This document shows positions 1 to 19,488 of a DNA stretch of 64,000 nt, piece after piece. Both the position numbers and the translations under genes were made by a program. This stretch comes from Microcoleus sp. (lineage in GTDB: Bacteria > Cyanobacteriota > Cyanobacteriia > Cyanobacteriales > Microcoleaceae): positions 14,669 to 78,668 of the forward strand of contig JAYFMW010000015.1 of the NCBI GenBank assembly GCA_042408215.1. The letters run 5' to 3'. The notes beneath the pieces are model-generated. The model searched no databases. It saw nothing but the letters and a program-made list of their open reading frames with translations, and was not told where the DNA came from. Position 1 is the first letter of the stretch; each line of letters opens with the position of its first letter.

Positions 1-114
1 CGGACGATAAGCCAGCATGAATCCTACTCGCTCGGTATGCGCTGATAGCCTTCCTAAAAGTACCATCGGATCAGGTATGTGAAAACTAAAGGCTGTTAAT
101 AAAGACTCGATTGG

Positions 115-141
115 GAGTTTGTCAGCGCAACTGACAAACTC
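115..141. terminator. Hairpin downstream of the minus-strand biosynthetic operon, possible terminator
   Basis: GAGTTTGTCAG-cgcaa-CTGACAAACTC, a perfect 11 bp stem about 200 bp past the GNAT stop. Confidence 0.4.
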
Positions 142-335
142 CAGATGAGTCTCAAGATTAATTCCGCCCGAACTATTTGCCTGAGATTCATTTTTCTTGG
201 CTAGTTCAAGGGATAATAACCAATGAAATTCTAATTGATTCGACATATTTGATAGCACCTTCAGAAATTAGTTTCACAGGATTTATATAGGTCTAAGAGG
301 ATGTTTGGAAAGTCAAATGTTCTTTTGCTCAACTC

Positions 336-1310
336 TCATAGGGATTTATCGCTCACGTTTTGAGTCTGCCATTCATACACCCAATACTCCAGTTCTTCAG
401 CTCGCTGGTATCCTGCGATATCCAGGGACTCAAAGATGCGATCGCTAATAGGAAACATCCCACCAACCGCCAGATAACCCTTGCAATAAGCAAAGGAGCG
501 TAACTCGCGCAGGAGAGTCGTTAAACCTTCATCCGTGCCATTGGCATAACCAAGCCACAAAGTTTGATGAGCGCCTTTCCACAATGCTTCATTAACTCCT
601 TCAAGGTAATCAATGGTATGGACAGGCATCTGAATAGCTAAAGCGAACATTTCATTGCCACGCTTTAGTCCCCATACTCGTCCTTCGTTGAGGTGATTCT
701 TCAGTTGCTCGCAAGTTAGTTCTTGCCACTTAGTGGGGTCATTAAGGTAAAGATACGACTCTCGTGTAAACAAGTTAGAACTTGTGACTAATGCCCAAGC
801 CGAATCAAAATCATCAATATCTAGATGTAACAGTTGTTTTACAGGAGAGTTTAGAGAGTCAGCTTTATAAGGAAAATAGCGACCGACTTTTTGACGACGT
901 TGCCACTTACTATACTTGTCTATGAAAACATTACTGGAGCAGGTGGAATAGCGTAAAACATTGATGTTTGTTTCTACAAAGAATCGCTCTATATGCTGCT
1001 CCAAAGTCAATAGCAGATGCAAACCTAGACCCTGCTGTCGATAATGAGGAGCTACTCGCAGACCTTGATACCAAGCTTCTCGCTCAGACATCAAGACGAA
1101 TCCTAAAATGCCTATCGGTAAACTATCTACTTCAACTACAAAGACCCGACTGTTGGGGTCAGCTAACCACTTGTTCCAACCCAAGGGGAGAAAGTCTGAT
1201 GAGTGTTGCCATGTCTGTTGGCAAATAGCCAGCACCGCCTCTTTGTCTTCAGCTCGTGCTAGGCGCACTTCTACGTCAGTAATTGTTTCTGTCTTAGCTT
1301 TTAATTCCAT
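336..1310 (-). CDS. GNAT-family N-acetyltransferase (N-terminal GNAT domain plus C-terminal domain)
   Basis: VRLARAEDKEAVLAI start; acetyl-CoA motif A LRVAPHYRQQGLG; overlaps upstream PLP gene by 10 bp. Confidence 0.85.
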   Translation of the reverse strand: MELKAKTETITDVEVRLARAEDKEAVLAICQQTWQHSSDFLPLGWNKWLADPNSRVFVVEVDSLPIGILGFVLMSEREAWYQGLRVAPHYRQQGLGLHLLLTLEQHIERFFVETNINVLRYSTCSSNVFIDKYSKWQRRQKVGRYFPYKADSLNSPVKQLLHLDIDDFDSAWALVTSSNLFTRESYLYLNDPTKWQELTCEQLKNHLNEGRVWGLKRGNEMFALAIQMPVHTIDYLEGVNEALWKGAHQTLWLGYANGTDEGLTTLLRELRSFAYCKGYLAVGGMFPISDRIFESLDIAGYQRAEELEYWVYEWQTQNVSDKSL

Positions 1311-2431
1311 TTTCGCAATGCTTTCTTAAGTAATTCAATTCCCTCAAGGATAGTTTCAGTTGGATAGCCAAGAGGAATTCTGACGTACCCGTCAGGAGAG
1401 GCTCTAAAAGTTCCAGAAGTTACCAGAACCAGCCCAAATTCAGTCAACATAAAGTCGGCAAATTCTTCAATATCTCGAACGGGAAGTTTGACAAAATACT
1501 GAAGTCCCCCTGCGGGATGCTCAAAGGCAATTTCAATCATCTGCGATAAAGCAGCACCAACAATTTCTCTATTCTTAACTACCCGTTCCACTAAGGATGG
1601 ATTGCCTCGTTTCAGAATTTTTAGCGCTTGTTGTTGAGCGGGAGAGCAGATCCCTAGGCTTTCAATCGTTAACAAAGCTGTTAACGATTGAATGTTATCC
1701 GAACTAGAAATAATCCAACCAATTCTAAGCCCAGGAGCGGAAAAATTTTTACTCATCGAGTTGACTACATAAAGATTTTTCCAATTCCCTTGCAGGGATA
1801 GAGGCTGGATGAGCTGATTTTCTTCAAAAACAAACTCATCATAAACTAGGTCTGCAATTAAACTAGCTTGACAGCTTTGGGCTAACTGCAAAAGCTTTCT
1901 AAGGCAATCTTCTGAAAGAATTTCTCCTGTGGGATTGTTCGGGGTGTTGACAAATATGACTCGAAGATTGTCTGTGACTTTTTCTTGTAAGCTAGACCAG
2001 TCTATCTGATTGTTTTCTACCGAGAAGTATTCAACCCTATAACCGCACGTTTGTAATAGTTCTGCAATGCACCAAAATATAGGTGCTTGACACAGTGCTA
2101 CAGCACCGGGACGGTAGAGAGAACGAAAGATGAGAGACAATCCATGTAAAGCACCATTGGTTACTAGCGCTTCCGAAGGTTGTACGTTGAGGTGATACTT
2201 AGAAAATTCCCGGTAACAAATGGCTTCGATGAGTTGGGAACTTCCCTGAGTCAATGGGTAATTTCCTACAAATGATAATTCACAGTTAAAATCATCAAAC
2301 TCCGTTTCTAACCATTGAGACGTGTTGCCAGTTATATTTATGGGATGTTTAATGAAACGATGAGCGTACTGGAGTCTTTGTACGACCAGAGAGGTAGGGG
2401 AATTTAAATCAACAACTCTAGTTTTTACCAT
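1301..2431 (-). CDS. PLP-dependent fold-type I (class I/II aminotransferase-like) enzyme; possibly a GntC/VioD-type cyclodehydratase
   Basis: TNGALHGL, NTPNNPTG, ADLVY, NSMSKNFSAPGLRIGW (PLP lysine), YVRIPLG; divergent N-terminus. Confidence 0.85.
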   Translation of the reverse strand: MVKTRVVDLNSPTSLVVQRLQYAHRFIKHPINITGNTSQWLETEFDDFNCELSFVGNYPLTQGSSQLIEAICYREFSKYHLNVQPSEALVTNGALHGLSLIFRSLYRPGAVALCQAPIFWCIAELLQTCGYRVEYFSVENNQIDWSSLQEKVTDNLRVIFVNTPNNPTGEILSEDCLRKLLQLAQSCQASLIADLVYDEFVFEENQLIQPLSLQGNWKNLYVVNSMSKNFSAPGLRIGWIISSSDNIQSLTALLTIESLGICSPAQQQALKILKRGNPSLVERVVKNREIVGAALSQMIEIAFEHPAGGLQYFVKLPVRDIEEFADFMLTEFGLVLVTSGTFRASPDGYVRIPLGYPTETILEGIELLKKALRKWN

Positions 2432-2465
2432 TTTATGAGCCTTATAATAGTTGCCTCAATCACTT

Positions 2466-2734
2466 TCTTGGCGTAAATACGAGTGCTAGTTGTGGCAATT
2501 CGTCCATTCAACCCCCATCGTGGTTTATCAGTCTTATTTTCCATAGTACACTGTTTTTCCGCCGGATTTAAAAGCTACCCAGAACATCTGATTATTCCAA
2601 CCAGTCGGTAATTGTTCTCTCCAGGTTTCTGGCAACCAACCATGAACAAACTTGAGTTTTGCCAGGATATAAAAGAAAGCCAGTTTAAGAGAAAACCTCC
2701 AATCAAATAAGGAAGAACTTGTTGTTGCTGTCAT
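2466..2734 (-). pseudogene. Internally deleted third copy of the Fe/2OG halogenase gene
   Basis: 2542-2734 is near-identical to the first ~64 codons of 6611..7825; 2466-2541 matches that gene's 3' region (KTDKSRWGLNGRIATTSTRIY) out of frame. Confidence 0.9.
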
Positions 2735-3004
2735 GTGTAAGTATCTTATATTTTATAGCTAGCAGGGCGACGAAAGAGGCTGAAAAGCATCCGTTGTTTT
2801 GGGTTTATATGTTTCGTATGCCTTCGGTCTACCTAAAATTTATAGAAACAACTTTATTCTCTAAGACTTCCCCTTCGGAACCGGGAAAAGGCACCTAAAT
2901 CCTATGTGCCTTTTCCAGAAAGAATTTCAAAATTTTAAAAACCTAAACAATGGACGAAACCTTTGGCCAGTACGCATTAGCAAAAATAAGGTGCGGTTGC
3001 CCTA

Positions 3005-4156
3005 TTAATCCTCGTCAATTGGATTGTCAAATCCGTAGTCTTCAAGTTGGCTATCCCGTCGTATATCGCAGGTGACGCAGTGAAATGAGCCGCCAAAACT
3101 ATAGACATGACGAAAAGCAACCGGAATGACTTCAAATCCTAAATCTTTGAATAATTTATGCATTGGCTCTTCTTGCTTTTCCACGATTACCCGCTTGGGA
3201 TCTAAGATCAAGATATTCATGGACAACCACGGGCCCGAACTATAAAGTGGATAATTATCGGGAATAGTGGGTTGCACGGCTGTCACAACATCCCATCCGG
3301 CTTTCTTAAAAATGTCGATTTGATAACAGGGTCTGTCGGGATTGGTTAAAACTAATCCAGGTCTTAGGGGTACAAATGTAGCATCTATATGGATTGGGTT
3401 TGAATCTCGGAACTTCAGTATATGAACCCGAAAGCGTTCACCCAGATGATTTCTGAGCCAAGTAATGCCTAGTTTATTGGTAACTTGACTGCGCTGAACA
3501 AATAAGTCTCGTCCGCAACGAGTAATATCAGCAGCATCAAAGCAAGGTTCAAACTCAGTTGTTACAAAACGCCCAACTTCTGCTAGTGCGTACCGATCTT
3601 CAACAGTTTCCATAGGATAGTCAAAGTCATACAATTCATCGCTCATTAAAGGTTTGGGAGCTGTCGTCCATTTAGCACCCTGTTTCAAATATTCCTTCAT
3701 TAAAGACCGATAAGCTCGATATTCAAAAAACCTTGATCGCCACGCCATTGGCGCTTCAATAATCTCATTGCCGATAACAGTTAGTATATCTCGCGGCATA
3801 ACGGCATGCAGACCTGTGGCTTCAAAATCTGGAGTTTTATAGCTCTCAGAAAAATCAATAATATCCGGTCGCCTTACAGTTACCCCTTCTCCTTCCAAAA
3901 CCCGGCAAAACTCCTCCAATTCCTTTGATGCTGGTTCTATCATTTCTTGAGGGTATGGACAACCACCATACTTTTGGAAAAACCACCAGTTTTTAGGATT
4001 TGAACTTGCTTTGAGGGGAACATCGAACTGAGGAACACAGGCTCCCTCAACGCGACCCACAATAATTTCTTGCAGCGTATCCCATTCATTGTAGCTATTA
4101 ACTATTGGCAGGGTTTTAGTGGAAGTCAAGCTTTTGGGATGATTGTTTTTCAACAT
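3005..4156 (-). CDS. L-arginine-dependent amidinotransferase (glycine amidinotransferase/AGAT-like)
   Basis: [28 protein letters not shown] (Asp), HIDATF (His), [10 protein letters not shown] (Cys): catalytic triad present. Confidence 0.95.
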
Positions 4157-4247
4157 TATATTGTCCTCGTAATAAAATACATTTGCAAAAACTGGGCTTA
4201 AAAATGCTCATGTCTTACGGAAGCATGAATATTTTCTATTTCTCAAA

Positions 4248-5321
4248 TTAGAGGTTTTTCTTAACATCTAACCTGGCAGTTTTCTTGCCCCTATCTAACT
4301 GATTTACTTGCCGAATTTCTAGCATTTTTGCTAACGCTATAACTTGCCTAAATAAACTAACCCAACCCTTTTCTTTATTTCGAGAGGCGTAAACTTTATC
4401 TTTCAGCAAAATCTGGTGCGCTTGCTTGTACTGCCACGAAGGAATACCAGGAAAAAGATGATGCAATAAGTGATAACCTTCCCAATGCATTCCTAAGAAA
4501 AAATTAGCCACGGGAGAACAAAGCCGATTTCGGGACATAAACAAATCAACCAATTTTAGATTTTCCATCCTGCCTTCAGTTTCCTCCGGAGTTACTTCCA
4601 TTAACGGGTAATGCTCGAACAACTCAATAAACGCTCCAATCCAATTAGCCGTTGTTAGCAGAGGAACCCACCAAAACAGCAGTAACAACCACCCCCAGCC
4701 CAGCCAGATAAACAGTGAATTCAACACAATCATATAGACTAGGCGCACTAGCTTCTCTCGAAATTCCTCCTGCGAATTCAAGATTCTGTTTTTGAGTAAA
4801 TAGCGCAGGTAAATCAGAGTGGTTGCTGGGTGAACAATGTTCCATAAATAGCGGCGCACGTTGTTAGCTTCTAAATTCGCTCCGTACAACCCACTCTCCT
4901 GTAACCCAACGTAATCTGGGTCTAGCTTGGAGTGCCCCAAATGACCGTGATGCTGGAAAACGTGGGAGGAGCGATAACCTGAATAACTTTGCAACACCAG
5001 ATAACCCGAAGGAAACGTCCCCAAGACAAAATTGAGTGCTTTATTCTTTGCCAAGGTTTTGTGCGTTGACTGGTGGAGTAAATCTGCTAAAGCACGCATC
5101 CTGCCACCAATGATCAAAATCGCAACTAAGTAAACCATTTCGCCTACGACTCGTGGCCAGTGCTGCCACGTTAACCAAGAAGCAAGCGTTGCAAGAGCAA
5201 TAATCGCCCAATCTTCAGCGAGTTGCACGAACCCGTGCCAATTATCAAGCTCAAAGCAACAACTTAACTCTCTGAAGATTGCGGCGTCGAAGCGATAACG
5301 CTTAATTTTTATCATTAGCAA
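4248..5321 (-). CDS. Membrane di-iron fatty-acid-desaturase-family enzyme (desaturase or amino-acid hydroxylase; GntB-like is possible)
   Basis: His boxes HQSTH, HVFQHH, EH, HLLHH; several transmembrane segments; probable start ATG at 5315. Confidence 0.85.
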   Translation of the reverse strand: MLMIKIKRYRFDAAIFRELSCCFELDNWHGFVQLAEDWAIIALATLASWLTWQHWPRVVGEMVYLVAILIIGGRMRALADLLHQSTHKTLAKNKALNFVLGTFPSGYLVLQSYSGYRSSHVFQHHGHLGHSKLDPDYVGLQESGLYGANLEANNVRRYLWNIVHPATTLIYLRYLLKNRILNSQEEFREKLVRLVYMIVLNSLFIWLGWGWLLLLFWWVPLLTTANWIGAFIELFEHYPLMEVTPEETEGRMENLKLVDLFMSRNRLCSPVANFFLGMHWEGYHLLHHLFPGIPSWQYKQAHQILLKDKVYASRNKEKGWVSLFRQVIALAKMLEIRQVNQLDRGKKTARLDVKKNL

Positions 5322-5327
5322 CAGTTC

Positions 5328-6527
5328 CTATTTAGTCGAAGCAGAGTCAAGCCTCTTTTCTAATTTTTCTGTGTATCTGTTATATCCAAAACGATCTTCA
5401 CCTCTGAGCAGAACTGCTCTCCACTTGTCCAAATTAATGTTTTTGAGATGTAAGTACTTGTTATGATGCAACCCTCCTAACATTTTCTTGGTGTAAATAC
5501 GAGTGCTAGTTGTGGCAATCCGCCCATTCAATCCCCATCGTGATTTATCAGTCTTATTTTTGAGGGAACCGTGAATCACTCGCTCAGTAAACAGATAAAA
5601 CTGCCCAGCTTTCATTTCGATGTAATGGGGTTGTGGCAACTCGCCTGGGTAATCGATCTGAAGATCCGGCGCACCCTCTAGGTTGGCTGTCTCTACGTTG
5701 ATCGGATAAATTTCATTAGTTCCGGGCAGAATCATCATGCAGCCATTCTCTTTGTTGGCATCGGTTAAAGCAATCCAGCAGGTTAGTTGGTAAAGCTCCT
5801 CATGGTCTTCTGGAGTCACTATCGATTCTTGCTGATTTAGCAAAAACCAAGTGCTGGCTTGATGTAATGTTGTTTCCTGACCGGGCTGAACTTCAAAAAA
5901 TTTAGTTCTCCACAAAAGAAGATTCGGTCCTAAAAGTTGAGCCGCTCGTTCAGTAATCGCAGGATGTTTAAACAGATTTAATAATCGATTGTTATCTAAA
6001 TGACGATCGATTTTATTGATCGTATAGAAAAAATGTTTTTTATATTCTTCTGTCAATTCTAGTTTCCAAGGTGTCACTTCTAAACCACTTCTACCAGTCG
6101 TGTCAAATTCATAATCTCCGGCAGTGAAAGAAAAATGTTGTGATTCAGTTTCCAGCAAGAAATTGACGAGATATTGCTGCAACTCCTCCATTTCATCTGA
6201 AGGTAGTAAATCGAATGGGCCGACATAGCCATTCTCATAGAAACCACGGATCTGTTCCTCAGTCATCTGAAATTCAGGGGCAACCGATGCTTTAGGTTTG
6301 TAAGATTTCGGTTCTTTTAATCGGCAATAGTAATCATAGTATGCTGTTTTCCCGCCGGATTTAAAAGCCACCCAGAACATCTGATTATTCCAACCAGTCG
6401 GTAATTGTTCTCTCATTTTTTCTGGCAACCAACCATGAATAAACTTGAGGTTGGCCAGGATATAAAAAACACCCAGTTTAAGGGAAAACTTCCAATTAAA
6501 TAAGGAAAAATTTGTTGTTGCAGTCAT
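5328..6527 (-). CDS. Fe(II)/2-oxoglutarate enzyme, SyrB2/CmaB/BarB-like putative halogenase, copy 2
   Basis: ENGYVGPFD, WRTKFF, HQAST (H-x-A), WIALTDANKENGC, KAGQFYLF...IHGS...R. Confidence 0.8.
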   Translation of the reverse strand: MTATTNFSLFNWKFSLKLGVFYILANLKFIHGWLPEKMREQLPTGWNNQMFWVAFKSGGKTAYYDYYCRLKEPKSYKPKASVAPEFQMTEEQIRGFYENGYVGPFDLLPSDEMEELQQYLVNFLLETESQHFSFTAGDYEFDTTGRSGLEVTPWKLELTEEYKKHFFYTINKIDRHLDNNRLLNLFKHPAITERAAQLLGPNLLLWRTKFFEVQPGQETTLHQASTWFLLNQQESIVTPEDHEELYQLTCWIALTDANKENGCMMILPGTNEIYPINVETANLEGAPDLQIDYPGELPQPHYIEMKAGQFYLFTERVIHGSLKNKTDKSRWGLNGRIATTSTRIYTKKMLGGLHHNKYLHLKNINLDKWRAVLLRGEDRFGYNRYTEKLEKRLDSASTK

Positions 6528-6610
6528 GTGTCAGTCTCCTATATTTTCTAGTTAATGGGCGATGAAAAGGCTGAAAAGCTTACGAAGTAATCAAGTATCG
6601 ATATCATTTC

Positions 6611-7825
6611 CTACTTAGTCGAAGCAGAGGCAAGCTTTTTCTCCAATTTTTCTGTGTATCTGTTGTATCCCAAACTATCTTCACCTCTTAGCAGAACAAC
6701 TTTCCACTTATCCAAATTAATGTTCTTCACCTTTGAGTACCTGTTGCGATAGAATCCTTCTAACATTTTCTTGGTGTAAATGCGAGTGCTAGTTGTAGCA
6801 ATCCGTCCATTCAATCCCCATCGTGATTTATCAGTCTTATTTTCGACGGAACCGTGAATCACTCGCTCAGTAAACAGATAAAACTGCCCAGCTTTCATTT
6901 CGATGTAATGGGGTTGTGGCAACTCGCCTGGGTAATCGAGCTTGGCATCCCGATTGCCATAAATACCACTCATCCCATCCTGGGTGACTTCCCCTACCTT
7001 GATGGGATAAATCTCCTTATGAGTCCCTGGGAAAATCATCATGCACCCATTCTCTTTGTTGGCATCGGTTACAGCAATCCAGCAGGTTAATTGGTACAGA
7101 TACTCATGGTCTTCTGGATACATTATCGATTCTTGCTGATTGGCAAAAAACGTGCTGGCTTGATGTAATTTTGTTGCCAAACCGGGTTGAATTCCAAAAA
7201 ATTTAGTTCTCCACAAAAGAAGATTCGGTCCTAAAAGTTGAGCCGCTCGTTCAGTAATCGCCGGATGCTTAAACAAATTCATTAATCGATCTTCTTCTAA
7301 ATGACGATCAAACTCATTCATCGCATTGACAATATATTTTTGATAGTCTTCAGTGATTTCTTGATTCCAAGCTGTCAATAAATCATCTTTCTTAGTCGTG
7401 TCAAATTCATAATCTCCTGCCGTGAAAGAAAAACATTTTGATTCAGTTTTCAGCAATGAATTGACGAGATATTCCCGCAAATTATCCATTTCATCTGGAG
7501 GTAGTAAATCGAATGGGCCGACATAGCCATTCTCATAGAAACCACGGATCTGTTTCTCAGTGAGCTGAAATTCGGGGGCTACCGATGCTCTAGGTTTGTA
7601 AGATTTTGGTTCTTTCAACCGACAATAGTACTCATAGTACACTGTTTTCCCGCCGGATTTAAAAGCCACCCAGAACATCTGATTATTCCAACCAGTCGGT
7701 AATTGTTCTCTCCAGGTTTCTGGCAACCAACCATGAATAAACTTGATTTTTGCCAGAATATAAAAGAAAGCCAGTTTTAGAGAAAAATTCCAATCAAAGA
7801 AGGAAGAAGTTGTTGTTGCAGTCAT
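6611..7825 (-). CDS. Fe(II)/2-oxoglutarate enzyme, SyrB2/CmaB/BarB-like putative halogenase, copy 1
   Basis: Paralogue of 5328..6527; HQASTFFAN resembles SyrB2 HQADTFAN; distal His and 2OG-binding Arg retained. Confidence 0.8.
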   Translation of the reverse strand: MTATTTSSFFDWNFSLKLAFFYILAKIKFIHGWLPETWREQLPTGWNNQMFWVAFKSGGKTVYYEYYCRLKEPKSYKPRASVAPEFQLTEKQIRGFYENGYVGPFDLLPPDEMDNLREYLVNSLLKTESKCFSFTAGDYEFDTTKKDDLLTAWNQEITEDYQKYIVNAMNEFDRHLEEDRLMNLFKHPAITERAAQLLGPNLLLWRTKFFGIQPGLATKLHQASTFFANQQESIMYPEDHEYLYQLTCWIAVTDANKENGCMMIFPGTHKEIYPIKVGEVTQDGMSGIYGNRDAKLDYPGELPQPHYIEMKAGQFYLFTERVIHGSVENKTDKSRWGLNGRIATTSTRIYTKKMLEGFYRNRYSKVKNINLDKWKVVLLRGEDSLGYNRYTEKLEKKLASASTK

Positions 7826-7878
7826 GTGTAATTCTCCTAAATTTTATATCTAGCGGGGCAATTTGTTCATGTTGGAAT

Positions 7879-9228
7879 TCATTGAAGAACTTCCTGTTCT
7901 AAAAGATACTGAAGCGCCTCAATGACTCGGTAGGCTGAAAGCTTGCGCGAGGTTTGGGTGAGAAATTCAGAAACCACATCGCTGGCTTTTTTGGAGGCGG
8001 TACACAACTGACAAAGCAATCGCAAATCTTTGGCTGGTAAATACATATTTAACCTTAATTTGCTGGCGATTTGAGGCGATTCTCGAAAACTCAGGAGTTT
8101 TGAGGGTGAAAGTGTAATTTGACCTCTTCTTGGTTGCCAGAAAGGGGAGTTGGGCCAACGGGTTTCTTGGGCATAGTATTTGCACCTATCTTGCAAATAA
8201 ACTTCAAACTGATGCAGAGTTTGAGATTCGTATGCGGCAAGAGCGTCCCGATCGCCGTCAAAATAACGGGCGATCGCAAAGGCAGCCTTAATTCCTGACT
8301 GTAAAGCCTTGTAAATGCCAGCAGAAGAAAGCGGGTCAAGAGTACAAGCCGCATCTCCAACAGCCAGCCAGCCATGACCTGTCATCCGATCTAAGTACTG
8401 GGAAAAGGCGGGCTGAATCAAAAGCCTGGATTGAGAAGAGGCGTGAGAGGTTAACTCCTGAATATACTGCGTTTTCTTTAAATAAGCTGTCCAGGTTTCT
8501 GGCCGGAAGAGCTTATGTTTTCGCAGCAGTTCGCTATCGGTCATTAAGGTGATGATCGCACGGTCATTAGGCAGACGGGCGGCGTACCACCAGCCAAATT
8601 CCGTTGCTTCTACCAAAGTGTGGTAATTTTTTGGAGCCTCTTTTTCCCAGGTAAACACTGAGGCAACAGCGAGCAGGCGATCCATCCTGACTTTGTGTGC
8701 CCCAACCCTGGTGGCTAAAATACTTCGATGTCCGCTCGCATCGACTACGAAGGTCGTTGTCACCTGGAATTGGCAACCGTTTTTGGTTCGCAGTGTCAGT
8801 CTCCATTTGCGATCGGCAAGTTGGTTACAGCCTACCACTGTTGTCTCCCGCATTAAAATCGTACCACATTCCTCTGCTGCATTAGCCAGCGCTTTATTGA
8901 ATCTTGCCCGATTCAGATGCCAACCGTTCCCCCCAGGATAGAAAAAGAAATCCTGAAATCCCAATTGGGTTCCACCCCATGCAGAACTATTTCCCAATGA
9001 GGGGAGGTGACCATCTCGTTCAAAGGAATCAAGCACTCCTAATTGCCCTAAAACAGTTCGTATATTGGGGGGAACTGTTTCACCAATGCGAAAGTCATCC
9101 AGGCGGGATTTTTCTAGGAGGGCAACGCGCTTTTCCCCTTGCTTTTGCAGAGCGATCGCGGTTGCTGCTCCGGCGACACCACCACCGACGATCGCCAGAT
9201 CGATTTCTGGTGGCAGATTGTTATTCAT
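7879..9228 (-). CDS. lodB: LodB/GoxB-type flavoprotein (CTQ maturase)
   Basis: GGGVAG Rossmann motif, RIGETVPP, VVDASG, GWWYAA, AVGDAACTLDPLSSAGI; overlaps the 3' end of the LodA-like gene. Confidence 0.85.
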   Translation of the reverse strand: MNNNLPPEIDLAIVGGGVAGAATAIALQKQGEKRVALLEKSRLDDFRIGETVPPNIRTVLGQLGVLDSFERDGHLPSLGNSSAWGGTQLGFQDFFFYPGGNGWHLNRARFNKALANAAEECGTILMRETTVVGCNQLADRKWRLTLRTKNGCQFQVTTTFVVDASGHRSILATRVGAHKVRMDRLLAVASVFTWEKEAPKNYHTLVEATEFGWWYAARLPNDRAIITLMTDSELLRKHKLFRPETWTAYLKKTQYIQELTSHASSQSRLLIQPAFSQYLDRMTGHGWLAVGDAACTLDPLSSAGIYKALQSGIKAAFAIARYFDGDRDALAAYESQTLHQFEVYLQDRCKYYAQETRWPNSPFWQPRRGQITLSPSKLLSFRESPQIASKLRLNMYLPAKDLRLLCQLCTASKKASDVVSEFLTQTSRKLSAYRVIEALQYLLEQEVLQ

Positions 9229-11128
9229 AAGGCAAATTTCTTTTTAGTTCGGTCAAATCTGAACTGTCCCGACTGCGGTATCCCTGTGGGCTATCGAAGA
9301 CTTCGTTTCCGGCTGTTGGTGTTGGTCGAAGAGGCAAAGTTCTTTCTACTTCTGCGAAATAGGAACCTTCCCAATTGATTGCTTCTAGGGCTTCCTTGTA
9401 TTCTTCTACTGTTGAGATATCAAAAACGAATCCGAGTTGATGCCACTTCTCTACCATCTCTAAATCATCGGCAAATGCAATGTAATCGGGGGCTTGCTGG
9501 TCGTAGTCGGTTCCCAGCCAAGGAACTTGTTCATTTTTGATTTTTTCGGAAGGAGCGTCTCTTAGCTGGGGATTGGGTGGCAAATACACAAACTCCGGTC
9601 GTTGGGCAGGCCACCACCAGACAAAACGGCCATCAATGGGTTGGGAGGAACATTCATTGAAATCTGCCTGCCAAGGCAATGCCATGAACTTGCTGATATC
9701 TCCTGGCTCTAGCCCTTCTTCCAAATTCATGTCTAAACTAAGCCGAGCCATTGGCTTCATTTTTTTATGTTTGATGCGGAAGAGTTCCGAGTATATCTTG
9801 GGGTTGCGTGAAATCCAAGTCATTTCAATACCAGGAGAAAAAGCTCCCCCTACACAGTTTTCCAAAGTGGCACGAGTTAGATGTTCGCCAGGATCTTCTT
9901 CCTGAGAATTAATTTCGTTGTTTGTAAACTTCCCCTTTGCCCACTGTTCAAGCAGAAAATATTGGGTCTGGGTCAAGGTCAGAAATTTGGCTGATTTCTG
10001 GCTTGCCCCGGTCGCATCATCCCCCGCTAAATACGGCATCATAGGATAGCCCGTTGTGGGAGATTTCAAAGTATTGTTCATACTCGGCGGTCGGACTTGG
10101 CTAAAGAAGTATTGCCGCATACTGTTGTAGCGTTTATCGGAATTTCCCAACAAATCGTAGTCAAAGGTGTGAGGTTTGGGCGGCATGGCGGCAACCCAAG
10201 GAAATAGGGAAGCACGTTCTAAGATGGGTCGGATTTCCTGGTTGAAATCTGGGTGATAATCCTGATTCCAAAAACCATTTTTATAAATATAATTATCCCC
10301 ATCCTGACGATATCCCATCTGCCGAACTGCGACATCAAATATGGTGTCGTAAAGCGTAACCAGATTGAGAAGCTGCGGGGCATAGGCAGGGGGGGCAACT
10401 AAGACCCAAGCAGGGACAACTTCAATCGTTTGGCCATTATCGAACATCACTGTTGCTGTAACTGGTCCATCGGAGGTGTCATCCCACCAGCCATCATTAT
10501 TGGCATAATCGGTGATAACAGGATTTTGGTTTGAACCGGAATGACCGAATCCTCCCACTACAATCAGGCGTCCTTGAGAATCGGTATGTATCTTTCCTAG
10601 AGAGTCGATCCCATCGGGTTTTAAACCCTTCGGAGGGAAGGTCATGGGATATTCAGTTTGAGAAGATCGGGAGAAATTGGCAGATTGATTTGGTCCGGTC
10701 AAAATCCTGCCACCCGGATCGATAATAAGTTCGTACCTTTGTGCGGGATCGGAAATACTGCTGTTGCGTAAAGGATGGTTGGAAGCATACCCCTGTTCGC
10801 CGTTTTTGGTCTGGAACTCATACCAGATAGCTTTTTTATTTGCCAAGCGAACAGTCCATATAATTTTGCTTACCTCAAGCTGTCCAATCTTCTCCCCAAC
10901 CACAATTTCTTGCGGTTCACCACCTGACTCAGGGTAGCGATAAATACGAAAACGCGCTCCTTGCCGACGTAGATTTTTGTCGCTATCTCGGAAGTCACTG
11001 GGTTGAAACTCGCAGCCATCGAGCCGAATGGGAAGTCCCCCTGCTTCTTCTGGGGCTAGATAATACTCTTCACTATTTCCAACGCGGGCAACACCAATGG
11101 AAGGAAAAATTTTATAAGTATCTGCCAT
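9221..11128 (-). CDS. lodA: LodA/GoxA-family cysteine-tryptophylquinone amino-acid oxidase
   Basis: IFPSIGVARVGNS, LRRQGARFRIY, LANKKA, NNDGWWDDTSDGPV, GGAFSPGIE, PWQADFNEC (CTQ Cys), WWWPAQRP (CTQ Trp), W..LGF. Confidence 0.95.
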   Translation of the reverse strand: MADTYKIFPSIGVARVGNSEEYYLAPEEAGGLPIRLDGCEFQPSDFRDSDKNLRRQGARFRIYRYPESGGEPQEIVVGEKIGQLEVSKIIWTVRLANKKAIWYEFQTKNGEQGYASNHPLRNSSISDPAQRYELIIDPGGRILTGPNQSANFSRSSQTEYPMTFPPKGLKPDGIDSLGKIHTDSQGRLIVVGGFGHSGSNQNPVITDYANNDGWWDDTSDGPVTATVMFDNGQTIEVVPAWVLVAPPAYAPQLLNLVTLYDTIFDVAVRQMGYRQDGDNYIYKNGFWNQDYHPDFNQEIRPILERASLFPWVAAMPPKPHTFDYDLLGNSDKRYNSMRQYFFSQVRPPSMNNTLKSPTTGYPMMPYLAGDDATGASQKSAKFLTLTQTQYFLLEQWAKGKFTNNEINSQEEDPGEHLTRATLENCVGGAFSPGIEMTWISRNPKIYSELFRIKHKKMKPMARLSLDMNLEEGLEPGDISKFMALPWQADFNECSSQPIDGRFVWWWPAQRPEFVYLPPNPQLRDAPSEKIKNEQVPWLGTDYDQQAPDYIAFADDLEMVEKWHQLGFVFDISTVEEYKEALEAINWEGSYFAEVERTLPLRPTPTAGNEVFDSPQGYRSRDSSDLTELKRNLPYE

Positions 11129-11213
11129 GTCTGCCTCCTTTTCTTATGATTTTTGTCAACAGTTTGCCAATTGCTGTTTCACTCTGATGCAAGCGAGGGC
11201 TTCTTTAAGGATT

Positions 11214-12479
11214 TCACAAACGCTCTCTCAGGGAGCTTCCTTGAGTTTTTTGGTTGATGTCTTGAAGGGTGTTATCAACTGCGCTTACAGTAGCTGCAAT
11301 GGGTCGTAAATCAACATCTAGACTAGCGGCTGAATCTAACTCTTTTTTTAACTGCTCTACTTTGAGGATAAGCTCATCCAAAGAAGTCGAACTGTACTGA
11401 AAACAGGGACCCGCATTCGGACCAAGAGTTCCAGCTTTTTCCTGAATGGGAATTTGCATTAACTGAGTGGCTAGTGTGGTAAAGATGCTTTGCATTATGG
11501 GGACAATCACTGCAAAGTAGGGGTCAGTTTCTATTACTTTGTCTGGACCAAAGGTCTCTTGCAATGCTCTGACTAAAAGACCATAACAGTCGTTGAAGAC
11601 TTCTGCAAGCCTTATAGCCCACTGGTTTTGAAACTTTTCTGGCGAGGGATTGGGCAGCATGGGATAAGTTTCTCCAATAGGAATCGTCCCGTCTGCCAAG
11701 TCTTTGAATTTAAAGAAATGGGACATATCGAAGGGAGTTCCTAGTATCGGACCGTAGGTTTCATCGTTACGAAGACCATAGTAGTTATAGGTTCCCCAAG
11801 GTTGGTCGGGTTGATACTCTCGGTTCGGGGGTACTGCACCCTCTCCCTGTTGCATGATTTGATTAATCGCCTCTTTCGCCGTGTCCAAATTCTCGACAAG
11901 GATGGCTTTTCCACCGCCACTGCCAAAGTATAAGTTGGTTCGCTGCAATTCAGTTTGGTACTTAAAGTCCGGTGGAAGCTTTTCAAACTCCTTTTTAATG
12001 GCTTCATAGAATTGCCCAATTGTCTGAGATTTATCGTCGTCTACTGTTGTGTCCAACGGTGCGGGTCTTTCGATAGTCATAAAGGTTTGTAGCATCAATT
12101 CCGGTGATGCTGCCATAAGTTGGACATAAACACCACCTGCCACTTGATAAGGCATAGAGTTGGGATAGTCCCAAATCTCGCCTACTAACTTGGGAATACC
12201 CCCAACGGAATTCATCAGGTTACAGGCAAGGTTAAGGTGTAGCATTTCTTCCAATACCACACTTCTGAATGTCTGATAAGCCTGAGAAGTTTTATCTTTA
12301 ATAGAATATAGAGCTGTGAGGTAGGGAGGAATGGTAAAAAACTCTATGATTAATGCCTTCTGAAGCATCGTCTTTATCGTCTTTACCGTCTCGTCAGGAG
12401 AATCGCCGGAAGAAGGGTTTACCTTCTCAATTCGCGGTTGGCGTTGAGAAAAAATCGCTTGGCGTTTAGAAGTAGTCAT
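11214..12479 (-). CDS. Ferritin-like domain protein (VioB C-terminal-like family)
   Basis: LQKALIIEFFTIPPYLTALYSI, EEMLHLNLACNLMNSVGG, TIGQFY, QQGEG, SHFFKF. Confidence 0.85.
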   Translation of the reverse strand: MTTSKRQAIFSQRQPRIEKVNPSSGDSPDETVKTIKTMLQKALIIEFFTIPPYLTALYSIKDKTSQAYQTFRSVVLEEMLHLNLACNLMNSVGGIPKLVGEIWDYPNSMPYQVAGGVYVQLMAASPELMLQTFMTIERPAPLDTTVDDDKSQTIGQFYEAIKKEFEKLPPDFKYQTELQRTNLYFGSGGGKAILVENLDTAKEAINQIMQQGEGAVPPNREYQPDQPWGTYNYYGLRNDETYGPILGTPFDMSHFFKFKDLADGTIPIGETYPMLPNPSPEKFQNQWAIRLAEVFNDCYGLLVRALQETFGPDKVIETDPYFAVIVPIMQSIFTTLATQLMQIPIQEKAGTLGPNAGPCFQYSSTSLDELILKVEQLKKELDSAASLDVDLRPIAATVSAVDNTLQDINQKTQGSSLRERL

Positions 12480-12548
12480 TGTATTGTTCCTTTGTGTTGC
12501 AAACAGTCAAGATACTCGTTATTAGGCGGGATAACTTGGCCCCATAAG

Positions 12549-12608
12549 CTAGAGCAACCCCTCCCTAAGAATTGCGCCGTCAAAGCGATAACGCTCAACC
12601 CTTGACAT
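12549..12608 (-). pseudogene. 5' vestige of a desaturase paralogue (MSRVERYRFDGAILREGLL*)
   Basis: Matches the desaturase N-terminus MIKIKRYRFDAAIFRE at protein and DNA level (cgttatcgcttygacgscgcaaty). Confidence 0.6.
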
Positions 12609-14140
12609 TAACCGCACTCTTGGCAACGCTGTCAGCTTTACCATTGATTGATTGGGGGTTAACTTGCGGCACAGAGGAAGGCACGGCTGTTTTGATAAAT
12701 TCGTAATAAATCGACAAGAACACCTCATCTAGCGGCACATCGCGCATCATCTGCTTCGCCTTTTCCCGCAGCTTTTCGTGTGCCGAGTTGTCGAGAACTG
12801 CCATTTCAAACAGCAGGCGAAGATAGGACTCTAGTTCGCGGGTACGGTTGTAAGGCAAAAAGCCACCGGGTTCCCGTACTGTTGCCATCAAATCGCGGGC
12901 ACCCACCTCCAGCAACCGCTGGAACGGATTTTCATTGCGACGACGTTCAATCATCGGCGAGAACACATTCTCCGTGGGGGGTTGTTTGCCAAGTAGCTCT
13001 GCCGTCACAACCTGAGCAACTAACGGAGCCATCAGCATCCCATTCCTGTAGGTTCCCGTCGCCACGAACAACCCTGGAAATGCAGTTTTTCCAACTAAAG
13101 GAATCCCATCAGCGGGAATGGGACGCAATCCATAACGCATTTCTTCGATTCTGGTATTTCGCAGCGCAGTATTGAACTGGCTAGCCCCATCACCAAGAAT
13201 ATAGAGGAGGTCTTGAGGTTGAACTCCCAAACTCATTTGGGCAGTCAAGCTCAAAGAATTGGTTGCCCCCCACGTATAAGCGTCCCTCACTGCGAGGAAC
13301 AACGTGCAATCCGCACGCAAAGGAACGATTGGGGGTGCGAAGCGTGTGGGGAAAATGGGGAGCATCTGCCAGAATACAACTGGTGCCTTTGCCAAATAAC
13401 ACCGCAGGCAGCTTCAGCTTGGAAAACAGCGTCTCACCGATAACTTCTGGGACTTTCGCTCCCGCACATACCACCACATGAGGCGTGGAAATGCAACCGT
13501 GGTTTTCGGTTTGGATGTTCCATGTGCCTTCAGTGTCCCCAAAATTGATCGAAACAACTTTATCATCTAAGACTTCCCCTTTGGGGTGTAGTGCGATCGC
13601 CACCTCAAGGGCTGATAGTAAGTTGTGAGAATCAACTGACCCTTCACCAGGGATAAACAACGCTTGGTAAGCCGGACAGGAATTGTTGGCATCTAAACCG
13701 GGAACGTCGTCTGGATCGACCCACTCATGGGGTTCATTATAGGTTTCTAGTTGGGCTTTCATGCGCTTGAGATTGGCCCGATCGCGATCGCCTGCACTGT
13801 TGCCAATAATAAATGTTCCTTGTGTGGTAAATATCTCTTGCCCCGATGCCTCCCTCACGCTAGAGAGCCAATCTGGGTAAATCTTCTGCGCTTTGATCCG
13901 AAACTCCAGTTCAAGGCGTTCTTCAAGAGTCTCCTGGTCGGCAGTAATCTCGCCGTATGCGCCCAACATAGCACCACTAGCCAGCGAGGCTCCATCACTA
14001 TTCTGCTGCTGGGGATAGATCAGCACAACCTTCAAACCGGAACGGGCTAGTTCAAAGGCGATGGATTTACCAATAATTCCACCACCAACAACTACGGCAT
14101 CATATGAATGATGGCTGGTGACGTTGTTCTGTAAAGTCAT
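12595..14140 (-). pseudogene. FAD-dependent amino-acid oxidase (ThiO/DadA/DAO-like) split by a +1 frameshift (real lesion or sequencing error)
   Basis: VVVGGGIIG, GASLASGAML in 13190..14140; GLRP, ATGTYRNGMLMAP in 12595..13395; removing one C from the C6 run at 13266-13271 restores GRLYVGATNS. Confidence 0.85.
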
Positions 14141-14255
14141 TTCTTTTCTGCCAATTCTGTGAAACCTTTCTAGTTACTTAAAATAAAACACTGTTCAATC
14201 TTACGGGATTGTTGAAGGCATTTGTCAAAAATACTAATCCTTATTTTCCAATAAA

Positions 14256-14924
14256 TCAAGTAGGAAAAGTAGGAAGATTTATCAGGAGAGCTATAAAACC
14301 CATTTGACATCTTTTAGCGATCGCCCACAACGGTCGAGCGGTCATAACAGTCGATCGGTCATAACGGTCGATCGCCCGCACAAGCTGTTTTTTGAGGTCA
14401 TTATTATCTGTAGAAGTTTGGCACTCCTGCGGCGCTCTCTCTAGCTGCGAACTATCTTCATTTACCAGAAAGCCGCGATCGCAAATCAGTGATAATTGCT
14501 CGCTATCCCCTGAGTAGGAAGCCTCCACAAAATCAGTGGCAACAGGTAACTGATTAGTGGTAGGCGTTAGTGGTGTGTCTATTACTTCTACTAATTCTAA
14601 GGTAACAGATAACTGGTCACTAGCCACTGTTTCACCTGTCCGGGAGAACAGATATTGCTTGAGCACTAAAAACAGATTTTTTTTCCTCACTCTCTCCCCT
14701 AATGCTTTTGAAAAAGCCTGCCACAACTGGGAGCCAATTTCTTTGATGTGAGCGATACTATAGGCACTATCGGCTGCCATCTCGCTATAACCGCGTCCGA
14801 GCCATGAGTGACACAGGATTAAGCGCTCAAGAGAACTCAGTTGCTTAGAGAGCAGACTTTGTTCTACAGTGTCCAGAACTTCGTCAACATTCATGTAGTG
14901 ACTCCATTTGAGTAGTATGCACAC
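14256..14924 (-). pseudogene. Cyanobacterial HTH-type N-terminal domain protein (as on HTH-AAA proteins), truncated by an IS end
   Basis: LSSLERLIL..SW.G.GYSEMA..SAYS..HIKEIGSQLWQAFSKALGERVRKKNL is homologous to the N-terminus of 24250..25599; the last ~40 codons run through IS-end DNA. Confidence 0.65.
14292..14384. mobile_element. Solo terminal end of an IS5-family element
   Basis: TATAAAACCCATTTGACATCTTTTAGCGATCGCCC...GATCGCCCGCACAAG matches the reverse complement of the IS end at about 58676-58717. Confidence 0.8.
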
Positions 14925-15224
14925 AGCAAGGAACGCTCTAGATTCTTAGACCCCAAAACAGGCAGTTAATAAAAGAAGGCTTTTATGCAGATAGCAGAGG
15001 GGAGAAGGACAAGGGCTCAATTACTGTCAGCGGACATTCACCAAACAACTTCACTATTAATTATTCAGTTGTTTAGCTCAACGAGAAATAGATAAAGTTG
15101 GTATGTTTGTGTAAAGTTATATTGCTGCGATCCTCTTACTGCACAAGTAGTTGATTTTGTCAATATACTAAATTGGTCAATTAATTGCCCAACTAGAGCT
15201 AAAGATTGGTTCCAAGAGGCGCGA

Positions 15225-15430
15225 CTATTGACAAAGTTGTCGATCGCCCTCTTCCACCTCTGCATTAGTCCGCAGATAATCTCGCACCCAATTACAGCCA
15301 TATTCCAGCAGGTCAAGTTTGAGTATGCGCGCTAAATCCCAGACAACGAGAGTATTATCTTCACCTACAGAAGCTAAAAAACTGCCATCAGGCGCGATCG
15401 CCACATTCCAAACTGAAGTCCTATGTTTTT
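15225..15430 (-). pseudogene. Duplicated 3' fragment of a WD40 gene paralogue
   Basis: HRTSVWNVAIAPDGSFLASVGEDNTLVVWDL...[24 protein letters not shown] versus upstream gene end [24 protein letters not shown]. Confidence 0.8.
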
Positions 15431-15438
15431 CGAGAGGT

Positions 15439-18400: not shown

Positions 18401-19098
18401 AACGGTGTTTTCGTTCTATCTCGAATTAAATCCGAGGGAGTTGCTACCCCAAAAATCGCAAAGGTAATGCGTTGATATTCTGGGTTGATTGCCCGTTGGT
18501 TATAGCAGAAGCGAATGAAAGCAAAGAAGTCATCAATAGAAAAGTTAAGACCTAGCAAACTATCGATTTCATCGACAAAAATAAACAACCGTTCTTGGGG
18601 AAACTGCACCAGTAACAATTCCTCAATAAACCACCGCAAACGTTGCAATAAACCGAGATCGTTGCGTTCTTGCCACCAAGTTTTCAGGTTCAAGGTTTCC
18701 AGTAACCCCAACTGTCGCCATAAGTCACCTACAAATCCCTTGTACCATTGCAGTGGAGTAATTTGTTCGCTCCCCACCACACTCAAATCCACCGCAGCGC
18801 AGTGAAAGCCATCTTGCTGGAGGCGATGCTTGGTTCGCACCAGCAGCGAGGATTTGCCCATTTGTCGGGAGTTGAGGACATAGCAGAACTCTCCTCGCTT
18901 CAGGGCTTCATACAGTTGCGAGTCGGCTTGTCGCTGTACGTAACTAGGTGCATCAATAGTTAAACTGCCGCCGAGTTGATAGTTATATGGGGGCATAAAA
19001 AGTTGATTATTCAAATCAATTATCTTAGAGGATGTAGATTTTTCGTTTCGCTTTGTTCCACTCATTAATGACAAATCATACCTTCTTGGACTTTTCAA
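15439..19098 (-). CDS. AAA-like (AAA_35) NTPase + TM helix + ~14 WD40 repeats
   Basis: [17 protein letters not shown]alker A, IFVDEID Walker [21 protein letters not shown]...FSPDG...W repeats; real start probably ATG at 18996. Confidence 0.92.
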
Positions 19099-19210
19099 AC
19101 ATCCTCTGAGAGTGATGAAAGAGTGTTAATCATTTATTGAATGACCAGTAAGTAAGCATATTTTACCACAAAACGCAATATATAAAGTTGGTATCTATCA
19201 AGTATGGAAT

Positions 19211-19321
19211 CTTACAGCAGATTCCACACTTATCAAGTACGGTAGGGACACGGCAATGCCTTGTCCCTAGGAGGGTTGAGCGATAAGTTTGTGTACCTCA
19301 TAACAGCGGAAACCGCTGTAA
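19211..19321. repeat. Small MITE/REP-like element
   Basis: Imperfect inverted ends TTACAGCAGATTCC / GGAAACCGCTGTAA enclosing the GTAG-led hairpin GTAGGGACACGGCAATGCCTTGTCCCTAG. Confidence 0.5.
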
Positions 19322-19488
19322 ATATTTGTCAATCCAATCTAGCCAACTTTATTATATTGACAAACCTAAACTTCTCGGATTTAATTGTGGTATGGCTAGA
19401 TAGTTAAGCTGTTCATCGAATAAAGTTGTCTGCCTCACTGCCTAACTACAATCTTTGATGTTAAATATTGCTGAGGATTATATAATTT

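Follow-up and report, generated by a model that had tools for sequence, protein, structure and literature searches.

Can a filamentous cyanobacterium chlorinate an arginine-like amino acid that is free, and not tethered to a carrier protein? The question is raised by a row of genes at positions 336-14140 of a 64,000-nucleotide stretch of Microcoleus sp. DNA (contig JAYFMW010000015.1 of assembly GCA_042408215.1, positions 14,669 to 78,668), which as a whole we call the window. The row encodes two candidate radical halogenases, Hal1 and Hal2, together with a membrane di-iron hydroxylase, an amidinotransferase, an aminotransferase and an acyltransferase. The cluster is real, mostly intact and, it appears, uncharacterised; it brings known enzyme families together in a new combination, and its product is probably a chlorinated guanidino compound. 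More specifically, we propose a carrier-free pathway that would chlorinate, hydroxylate and acylate arginine or another guanidino or basic amino acid, a proposal to which we give about an even chance of being correct. Two intact HxA halogenases and the lack of any carrier together suggest that a free substrate is chlorinated by radical chemistry, and the identity of that substrate is suggested by an AGAT-family amidinotransferase, a MrsB/ArgM-type aminotransferase and a GntB-like hydroxylase.

Two candidate halogenases with no carrier gene on their contig

A preliminary description of this DNA had named radical halogenases, and this identification holds, since both PhyH proteins (Pfam, 90.9 and 90.4 bits) exhibit the halogenase-type H-Q-A...H iron site when compared with SyrB2. 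Residues H221-Q222-A223 of Hal1 align with the iron-site 'HQA' of SyrB2, and the distal histidine, H324, is also conserved. Among 42 aligned family members, both iron-site histidines and the glutamine are invariant (H324 occurs in 42 of 42), and position 223 is occupied by A in 26 members, T in 6, S in 4, G in 3, N in 2 and E in 1. An AlphaFold2 model of Hal1 with a mean pLDDT of 89.6 retrieves SyrB2 first in a Foldseek search (TM score of 0.75-0.78 by target length) and CytC3 next. Hal1 and Hal2 resemble halogenases of the SyrB2, CytC3 and BarB type in their fold and in a two-histidine iron site where alanine replaces the carboxylate, and their closest matches in both sequence and structure are of this type. 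Known enzymes of this type are about 310 amino acids (aa) long and act on carrier-tethered amino acids. In contrast, Hal1 and Hal2 carry an extra N-terminus of about 85 aa, have no carrier gene on their contig, and score 155.2 and 147.1 with the TIGR01762 'chlorinating enzyme' model, below its cut-off of 226.3.

The N-terminal extension has no counterpart in SyrB2, is conserved family-wide (with L42, P43, W46 and M50 invariant) and is modelled at a pLDDT of approximately 95. It opens with helices in the model, which by our own reading of the alignment look amphipathic. The family that shares this architecture includes at least 287 proteins at E <= 1e-20, mostly cyanobacterial, with a few labelled Tenacibaculum, Chitinophagales or Polyangiaceae, and all bear generic annotation only. 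Radical halogenation of free small molecules with no carrier is carried out by enzymes of the BesD, WelO5 and AdeV types, with which Hal1 and Hal2 would share free-substrate halogenation as proposed here, and which are probably different sequence families. Few carrier-independent radical halogenases are known. We tentatively suggest that Hal1 and Hal2 belong to a large, so far unnamed class derived from SyrB2, in which the N-terminal domain would enable work on free substrates, and that here they might chlorinate a free guanidino amino acid such as arginine or homoarginine.

The preliminary description had also stated that the genes are co-oriented, tightly spaced and free of any carrier, adenylation, nonribosomal peptide synthetase (NRPS) or polyketide synthase (PKS) gene, which the open reading frame (ORF) listing, domain scans and contig-wide searches confirm. 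Specifically, a six-frame search of the genome for the PP-binding domain (PF00550) yielded seven matches, as did a search with an amino-acid adenylation protein, and in each case none of the seven is located on the 78.7-kb contig. The neighbouring adenylation domain and carrier protein by which a SyrB2-type system would be recognized are thus not found there. A similar pattern is observed across the family. We collected 31 loci that encode an extension-bearing halogenase with at least 3 kb of flanking sequence (Phormidium sp. R1S1, or L025, and L022 are included), and searched them by tblastn for adenylation-, NRPS- or PKS-like matches. Such matches occur at four loci, and one of these is a ketoreductase-like match to a short-chain dehydrogenase/reductase (SDR), which leaves only L047, L076 and L085, and 28 of 31 loci without a match.

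Candidate enzymes for guanidino substrates

For the amidinotransferase, the earlier claim is borne out. The protein is a complete AGAT-family enzyme that scores 537 bits over residues 16-374 against human AGAT (1jdw) and 353 bits against SxtG (6u1r). Its cysteine in the segment FHCVTCD and an N-P-I-H-I-D segment align with human AGAT, such that the catalytic Cys, His and Asp are shared with AGAT, CyrA and SxtG. One loop reads Asn/Ile at the positions of human Asn300/Met302. The amidinotransferases of the cylindrospermopsin and saxitoxin clusters are followed by PKS or NRPS genes, unlike the arrangement here. The names given to its homologues, which bear on glycine as a possible acceptor, are automatic annotations. 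Four homologues from Microcoleus and Oscillatoria (P0182, P0206, P0210 and P0224, 60-68% identity) are named 'NarL family transcriptional regulator' in the records they come from, which looks like an annotation error.

For the hydroxylase, the proposed GntB type is upheld in that GntB (NF041365) is the best NCBIfam match, at 261 bits, but this falls short of the cut-off of 380. The next best family reaches 33 bits, and families of true lipid and carotenoid enzymes 31-33 bits. Five other GntB-like proteins that we fetched score 395-408 with the same model, and three of these five have PLP-enzyme neighbours (PLP, pyridoxal phosphate) that score 349-411 for GntC. Given that a homologue from Symplocastrum scores only 245, the window protein is best placed, on these scores, on a side branch of GntB shared with that protein (52% identity). 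In the Symplocastrum record (L026 6688-10939), the relative follows genes for an APS kinase, a sulfotransferase and two chromate-transporter-family proteins. In guanitoxin biosynthesis, GntB is an arginine gamma-hydroxylase and GntC a PLP-dependent cyclodehydratase. The window resembles that pathway in having a desaturase-family hydroxylase with GntB as its best match in a gene row with a fold-type I PLP enzyme, and differs from it in that the hydroxylase (261 against 380) and the PLP enzyme (194 against 415) both fall below cut-off and the other gnt genes are absent.

This PLP enzyme had been proposed to be a GntC-type cyclase, a view that the family models contradict. Because it passes TIGR04544, the model for beta-methylarginine bifunctional aminotransferases (367.8, cut-off 350), and fails the GntC model (193.9, cut-off 415), its sequence identifies it as a transaminase of arginine-type substrates, of the MrsB/ArgM type. 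Its identity to the GntC-like proteins encoded beside true GntB genes is only 26-28%. At E <= 1e-30 it matches 46 proteins, of which the named ones (35-46% identity) are called 'beta-methylarginine biosynthesis bifunctional aminotransferase', and one homologue, P0123, encoded on a 6.7-kb contig, is 60% identical. The translation contains the lysine motif S-M-S-K. The MrsB/ArgM aminotransferase has as its partner MrsA/ArgN, an S-adenosylmethionine-dependent methyltransferase encoded in the same cluster. The likeness to that system is confined to the aminotransferase, with its score above cut-off and its identity to the namesakes, since none of the ORFs here has a methyltransferase domain according to Pfam and the genomic context is entirely different.

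The remaining two enzymes are less specific in their matches. Pfam Acetyltransf_1 covers only residues 32-109 of the GNAT, a PDB search with its sequence gave no match, and its structural neighbours in the Atlas are GNATs of about 290-320 aa. Its top feature match, which we regard as a lead only, is a cluster with Hisat_C in 96% of members. The luciferase-like monooxygenase scores 157 with the NCBIfam alkanesulfonate monooxygenase model, below the cut-off of 510, and its 86 residues encoded within the window are 100% identical in the two closest relatives described below.

A pathway can be envisioned in which the amidinotransferase would guanidinylate an amine by using arginine, or in which arginine itself would enter. 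The aminotransferase would convert a guanidino amino acid to its 2-oxo acid or back, hydroxylation of a side-chain carbon would fall to the membrane di-iron enzyme, and Hal1 and Hal2 would chlorinate unactivated carbons of the free, untethered substrate, with the conserved N-terminal extension perhaps taking the place of carrier-protein recognition. In late tailoring steps, the GNAT might N-acylate and the flavin monooxygenase might oxidise the product, and chlorine could be kept or could be lost during ring closure onto the guanidine. The functional unit would comprise seven genes, those for Hal1, Hal2, the GntB-like hydroxylase, the amidinotransferase, the aminotransferase, the GNAT and the luciferase-like monooxygenase, and we consider this delimitation just as likely to be right as wrong.

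The genes adjacent to other members of the halogenase family provide additional guidance on the substrate. Near relatives of Hal1 (43-80% identity) have neighbours of an amino-acid type, including aminotransferases, amine oxidases and genes of the amino-acid dehydrogenase type. The closest relatives outside Microcoleus, at 76% and 61% identity, are encoded in genome G002 near genes for a KamA-family aminomutase, an aminotransferase and a thiamin pyrophosphate (TPP) enzyme. Among the NCBIfam matches of this TPP enzyme, 5-guanidino-2-oxopentanoate decarboxylase ranks second, at 381 bits against a cut-off of 500. In both G002 and G394, the halogenase gene follows a pair with the Pfam names AlaDh_PNT and saccharopine dehydrogenase, which we take to indicate lysine-type chemistry. 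A branched-chain aminotransferase is encoded near the halogenase of G394, and amine oxidases are found in G244 and L068. The G002 locus (L017/L119, contig C26, approximately 36-50 kb) constitutes a second carrier-free cluster, with two Hal-family halogenases and genes for AlaDH-like, saccharopine-dehydrogenase-family, cupin, TPP-enzyme, SDR, aminotransferase and KamA-family radical SAM aminomutase proteins.

More distant relatives (32-46% identity) adjoin genes of a different character, namely an SDR (six loci), PLD/phosphatase genes, KASIII with a desaturase and a sulfotransferase, a type III PKS with a P450 (L054), or a PKS (L085). These contexts, the placement of the hydroxylase in the membrane fatty-acid desaturase family, and the amphipathic look of the extension helices would all suit a lipid or other hydrophobic chain as substrate, with the desaturase-family enzyme and the halogenases acting at the membrane on an acyl chain and a guanidino head group being added later. 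However, the hydroxylase scores 261 bits for GntB and only 31-33 for lipid and carotenoid enzymes, the near halogenase clade is found with amino-acid-type genes, and neither acyl-activating genes nor lipid genes occur in the block. We therefore consider a lipid substrate to be quite improbable. One metagenome locus (L056 3817-9197) encodes KASIII-like, fatty-acid desaturase, SDR and sulfotransferase proteins beside an extension-bearing halogenase, a set that would suit a chlorinated, sulfated lipid.

Table 1. Genes and gene remnants of the row in the order of their transcription, with positions in the window
Feature	Position	Strand	Basis
ThiO-like FAD-dependent amino-acid oxidase, C-terminal extension of ~130 aa	12595..14140	minus	frames 13190-14140 and 12595-13395; Pfam DAO, NCBIfam ThiO
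Ferritin-like protein, PF12902 ('iminophenyl-pyruvate dimer synthase domain' family)	11214..12479	minus	Pfam, 152.6 bits
LodA-like quinoprotein amino-acid oxidase	9221..11128	minus	Pfam LodA_N and LodA_C
LodB-like flavoprotein, 8-nt overlap with LodA	7879..9228	minus	NCBIfam LodB/GoxB
Hal1, SyrB2-like Fe(II)/2-oxoglutarate halogenase, N-terminal extension of ~85 aa	6611..7825	minus	Pfam PhyH
Hal2, paralogue of Hal1 (78% identity), H-Q-A motif as in Hal1	5328..6527	minus	Pfam PhyH
GntB-like integral-membrane di-iron hydroxylase	4248..5321	minus	Pfam FA_desaturase, 116.9; three His boxes in translation
AGAT-family L-arginine:X amidinotransferase	3005..4156	minus	alignment to human AGAT 1jdw and SxtG 6u1r
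Remnants: oxidase-gene fragment, halogenase pieces	2461..2878	minus	see text; segment 2424-2933 absent from R1S1
MrsB/ArgM-type PLP aminotransferase (arginine / 5-guanidino-2-oxopentanoate type)	1301..2431	minus	TIGR04544
Two-domain GNAT acyltransferase, 324 aa, 10-nt overlap with aminotransferase	336..1310	minus	Pfam Acetyltransf_1
Luciferase-like (SsuD-type) flavin monooxygenase, 5' part	1..258	minus	Pfam Bac_luciferase; remainder at L034 13817-14668

The oxidase module in the window and in close relatives

The ORF listing and Pfam and NCBIfam scans place ten genes on the minus strand at positions 336-14140, together with pieces of a third halogenase gene. Transcription would proceed from the ThiO-like oxidase through the ferritin-like, LodA-like and LodB-like genes to Hal1, Hal2, the hydroxylase, the amidinotransferase, the aminotransferase and the GNAT (Table 1). 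Successive genes are separated by anything from a 10-nucleotide (nt) overlap to a 115-nt gap, with two overlapping pairs; the single exception is a gap of 573 nt between the amidinotransferase and aminotransferase genes. This gap holds an oxidase-gene fragment of about 97 nt (2782-2878), the upstream region and first 64 codons of a third halogenase gene (2542-2788, encoding its N-terminal 64 aa) and a piece for its C-terminal 33 aa (2461-2541). The count of ten genes given in the preliminary description stands. Two points in it are to be corrected: the oxidase is one frameshifted gene, and the row does not end with the GNAT gene, because the luciferase-like monooxygenase gene that follows it runs past the start of the window. 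Beyond that gene is a convergent OpuA-type ABC transporter. Farther along in the same contig, upstream of the window and about 6-8 kb beyond the transporter, genes for phage-integrase-family and phytochelatin-synthase-like proteins are present (L034 6263-8507).

A single additional base at position 13271, within a C6/G6 run, shifts the reading frame of the oxidase gene; it may stem from a genuine mutation or from a fault in the assembly. An intact ORF of 514 aa is present in the genome that we label G388 and in Phormidium sp. R1S1. This intact protein scores 168 bits with the ThiO model, below its cut-off of 250.8. Downstream of it, the presence of LodA and LodB is confirmed. The LodA-like protein matches both Pfam domains (LodA_N 231 and LodA_C 159 bits), and alignment with 2ymw reveals that PWQADFNEC (PWQADFxxC) and WWWPAQ (WWP) are conserved, which include the cysteine and tryptophan that form the quinone cofactor. 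The flavoprotein LodB is the maturase of the LodA cofactor, and its gene likewise overlaps that of LodA here. Thus the two domains, the cofactor residues and the overlapping downstream flavoprotein gene are shared with LodA/LodB and GoxA/GoxB. Unlike these systems, the LodA-like protein remains below both equivalog cut-offs (LodA 392.7 against 600, GoxA 249.5 against 750) and is preceded by a ferritin-like gene; the LodB-like protein scores 311.3 for LodB (cut-off 400) and 252.9 for GoxB.

The ferritin-like protein has 3hl1 as its sole PDB match (residues 32-101), and its Atlas neighbours all belong to PF12902. Among 400 other cyanobacterial genomes no close homologue was detected, with weak N-terminal matches (40-44% identity) in four, and as a query in the metagenome scan it recovered no relative. 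The LodA-like protein has matches in four of 401 cyanobacterial genomes. Three LodA/LodB loci fetched from other cyanobacteria include LodB, but none of the remaining cluster genes and no ferritin-like gene. We therefore rejected the idea of a conserved cassette of ferritin-like, LodA and LodB genes, because there is no metagenome relative, only four of 401 genomes have weak matches, and the three other loci lack the ferritin-like gene.

The closest relatives that we could fetch, from records titled Microcoleus and Phormidium, indicate which genes remain together. In G388, the order is oxidase, Hal1, Hal2, hydroxylase, amidinotransferase, remnants, aminotransferase, GNAT and monooxygenase, with no ferritin-like, LodA or LodB gene and no counterpart of window 7863-12547. 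In R1S1, window 8101-12571 is cleanly deleted, so that 237 nt from the 3' end of LodB remain immediately upstream of Hal1; the remnant segment (2424-2933) is also missing. The block from Hal1 to the monooxygenase is syntenic in both, at 99.9% nucleotide identity for window 1-7862 in G388 and at 97.4-97.6% in R1S1. Given the LodB end that adjoins Hal1 in R1S1 and the loss of the Lod genes from the relatives, the Lod module is, on this comparison, a segment once contiguous with the halogenase block and yet dispensable for retention of that block. Together with the ThiO-like oxidase and the ferritin-like protein, it would form an upstream accessory oxidase module that is dispensable, and that is broken or deleted in all three genomes that carry the block.

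These findings bear on the original proposal that LodA and LodB belong to a fixed operon. In its full form, all ten genes would constitute one obligatory operon that converts lysine to homoarginine, which would then be hydroxylated, cyclised by the PLP enzyme, halogenated and oxidatively deaminated to a chlorinated cyclic guanidine or aminoimidazole. Co-orientation and the gap of only 53 nt between LodB and Hal1 are consistent with this scheme, as are the former contiguity evident from R1S1 and the position of a Hal-family gene after the AlaDh_PNT and saccharopine-dehydrogenase-family pair in two other genomes, which we read as lysine-type chemistry. A contig from an RNA library that spans the oxidase/ferritin-like junction adds weak support. 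However, the ferritin-like, LodA and LodB genes are missing from G388 and deleted from R1S1 while the halogenase block is intact, the PLP enzyme fails the GntC model and passes an aminotransferase model, lysine is not established as a substrate given the scores of the LodA-like protein below the LodA and GoxA cut-offs, and the three other cyanobacterial LodA/LodB pairs lack the remaining genes nearby. We find the ten-gene operon unlikely, and the chemistry first suggested for this locus is only partly supported, being plausible in outline and wrong or unproven in several particulars.

Signals for transcription are of little help. A promoter scan gave 18 promoter-like sites where 24.1 were expected, and terminator-like sites on the minus strand fall within genes, so these scans are uninformative with regard to operon structure. 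A scan for riboswitches and other RNA families over window 1-20000 returned only two sub-threshold, snoRNA-like chance matches. Four RNA-library runs from three studies contain contigs over parts of Hal1, LodB, LodA, the ferritin-like gene, the oxidase and the aminotransferase, including contigs that bridge the oxidase/ferritin-like junction (12397-12648) and the start of the aminotransferase gene (2362-2521). Such contigs could derive from DNA, and neither the strand nor a continuous transcript can be read from them, so they do not prove transcription; the uncovered parts carry no meaning. In all four runs the deepest contigs fall on a segment of about 340 nt within LodB (8507-8843), with a depth of up to 39.6 in run X15, and in three of the four they differ from the window at several positions.

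Identity to G388 and synonymous divergence (dS) both form a mosaic across the locus. A block of about 9.4 kb, from window 1-7862 to about L034:13084, is 99.4-99.9% identical to G388, and both flanks are 92-93% identical, which suggests that the halogenase block was recently recombined or transferred between lineages. Between the window genome and R1S1, dN/dS is 0.15 for Hal1, 0.28 for the hydroxylase, 0.28 for the amidinotransferase, 0.41 for the GNAT and 0.53 for Hal2 (five of the six genes compared), all from small difference counts. GC content is 0.40-0.44 in the halogenase block and 0.44-0.51 in the Lod/oxidase part, compared with 0.434 for the window; we rejected it as a mark of foreign origin because the differences are modest and not decisive.

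A variable island and its wider distribution

The row occupies a site bounded by a conserved WD40/AAA protein gene and orf222 on one side and the OpuA-type ABC transporter on the other (window 14256-19098; L027, L028, L031, L047, L048 and L049). At the same orf222 position, other Microcoleus records encode an NRPS that includes a sulfotransferase domain, a PLP enzyme of the Cys/Met type and a bona fide GntB, which scores 404 bits. Since the gene sets at this one position differ, the site is, by comparison of these records, a hypervariable biosynthetic island of Microcoleus-type cyanobacteria. In L049, a lone halogenase gene is located between two transposase genes.

A metagenome scan with the halogenase alignment yielded 72 loci, two of which are diverged variants of this island. 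In L048, genes for a Hal protein (75%) and an amidinotransferase (70%) are convergent with orf222, an oxidase fragment and another Hal gene (70%). In L047, orf222 is followed by an oxidase (93%), Hal (80%), GNAT (66%), an adenylation protein, a PP-binding protein of 126 aa and the OpuA transporter. Such turnover could mean that the genes of the window share no pathway and are a patchwork of independent arrivals at a recombination hot spot, as the wholly different content between orf222 and OpuA in other Microcoleus records and the mosaic patterns of identity and dS might suggest. This seems very unlikely to us, because gene order is fully kept in three genomes with short gaps or overlaps, pairs of Hal with amidinotransferase and of Hal with GNAT recur at 66-80% identity, and an arginine theme is common to three of the enzymes.

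The L047 variant bears on the description of the locus as NRPS-free, which is true of this contig but not of its sister island, where a stand-alone adenylation protein and a carrier protein are present. Perhaps, then, the halogenases are carrier-dependent like SyrB2, and the adenylation/carrier pair was lost here to leave a non-producing relic, or the carrier is encoded elsewhere. In addition to L047, one can cite the best relatives, SyrB2 and CytC3, which use tethered amino acids, the frameshift, remnants and deletions at the locus, and the PP-binding domains elsewhere in the genome. Even so, we regard carrier dependence as improbable, given the 28 of 31 family contexts without a match by the tblastn proxy, the intactness and 97-100% conservation of seven genes across three genomes, and an N-terminal extension that is conserved and confidently modelled. 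Furthermore, the best match in the window genome to the L047 adenylation domain is only 33% identical and is embedded in an NRPS on another contig.

Several observations weigh against a carrier-free guanidino pathway, which we nevertheless prefer. Every chemical step, including the order of reactions, the acceptor and the site of chlorination, is one that we infer from sequence. The hydroxylase scores too low to pass as GntB, and the Symplocastrum protein, its nearest relative elsewhere, sits with APS kinase and sulfotransferase genes and no arginine enzymes. Distant halogenase relatives occur in lipid-like contexts (SDR, PLD, KASIII, PKS). The tblastn proxy is insensitive and would miss many isolated carrier proteins, and directly after the GNAT of L047 is an adenylation protein that exceeds the TIGR01733 cut-off (364.6 against 317.4), with its PP-binding partner. 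The locus exhibits decay in the form of the oxidase frameshift, the halogenase remnants and the deletions, and dN/dS for the aminotransferase is 1.59, a value based on 16 differences.

Rarity is a further point on this side. In a sample of 401 cyanobacterial genomes, a search with Hal1 gives matches in eight (E <= 1e-20), and only two of the 401, the window's own included, have the complete core. Among ten GntB-like loci from a scan of species representatives, two (L024 and L025) carry the same cluster. Counting L024 and G388 as one, the complete core was found in only three genomes, that of the window, G388/L024 and L025, all very closely related. Thus the expected co-occurrence of these genes elsewhere is observed for the core in G388 and R1S1 and for partial combinations in the diverged variants, but the complete core was found only in close relatives.

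All or part of the stretch occurs in 19 public sequencing runs from ten studies. Of these, 11 runs contain half or more of the words sampled from window 1301-11300; they come from six studies, one of which is possibly the source. The labels of these 11 runs include freshwater, aquatic and freshwater-sediment metagenomes.

As the preliminary description had anticipated, our literature search found no paper that describes this gene set. A 2026 preprint that surveys halogenases and amidinotransferases in cyanobacterial clusters does not describe it, and its halogenase queries are restricted to Trp-halogenase and CylC-type enzymes (10.64898/2026.09.06.749771). Lysine-specific amidinotransferases are reported from sponges in another publication (PMC12833800). 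The terms 'halogen' and 'chlorin' do not occur in a 2025 review that covers the guanidine natural products of cyanobacteria (PMC12371840), and to that extent a chlorinated guanidino metabolite would represent a new compound class for the phylum.

If the tentative suggestion made above for Hal1 and Hal2 is true, this cluster would be the first in cyanobacteria to encode a pathway to a halogenated guanidine, and the two enzymes would be the first radical halogenases of an arginine type. Carrier-independent radical halogenases are sought for selective C-H chlorination, and a mostly carrier-poor family of at least 287 members would widen the available toolbox. Moreover, given the freshwater, aquatic and freshwater-sediment runs in which the cluster is detected, a bioactive product could matter environmentally.

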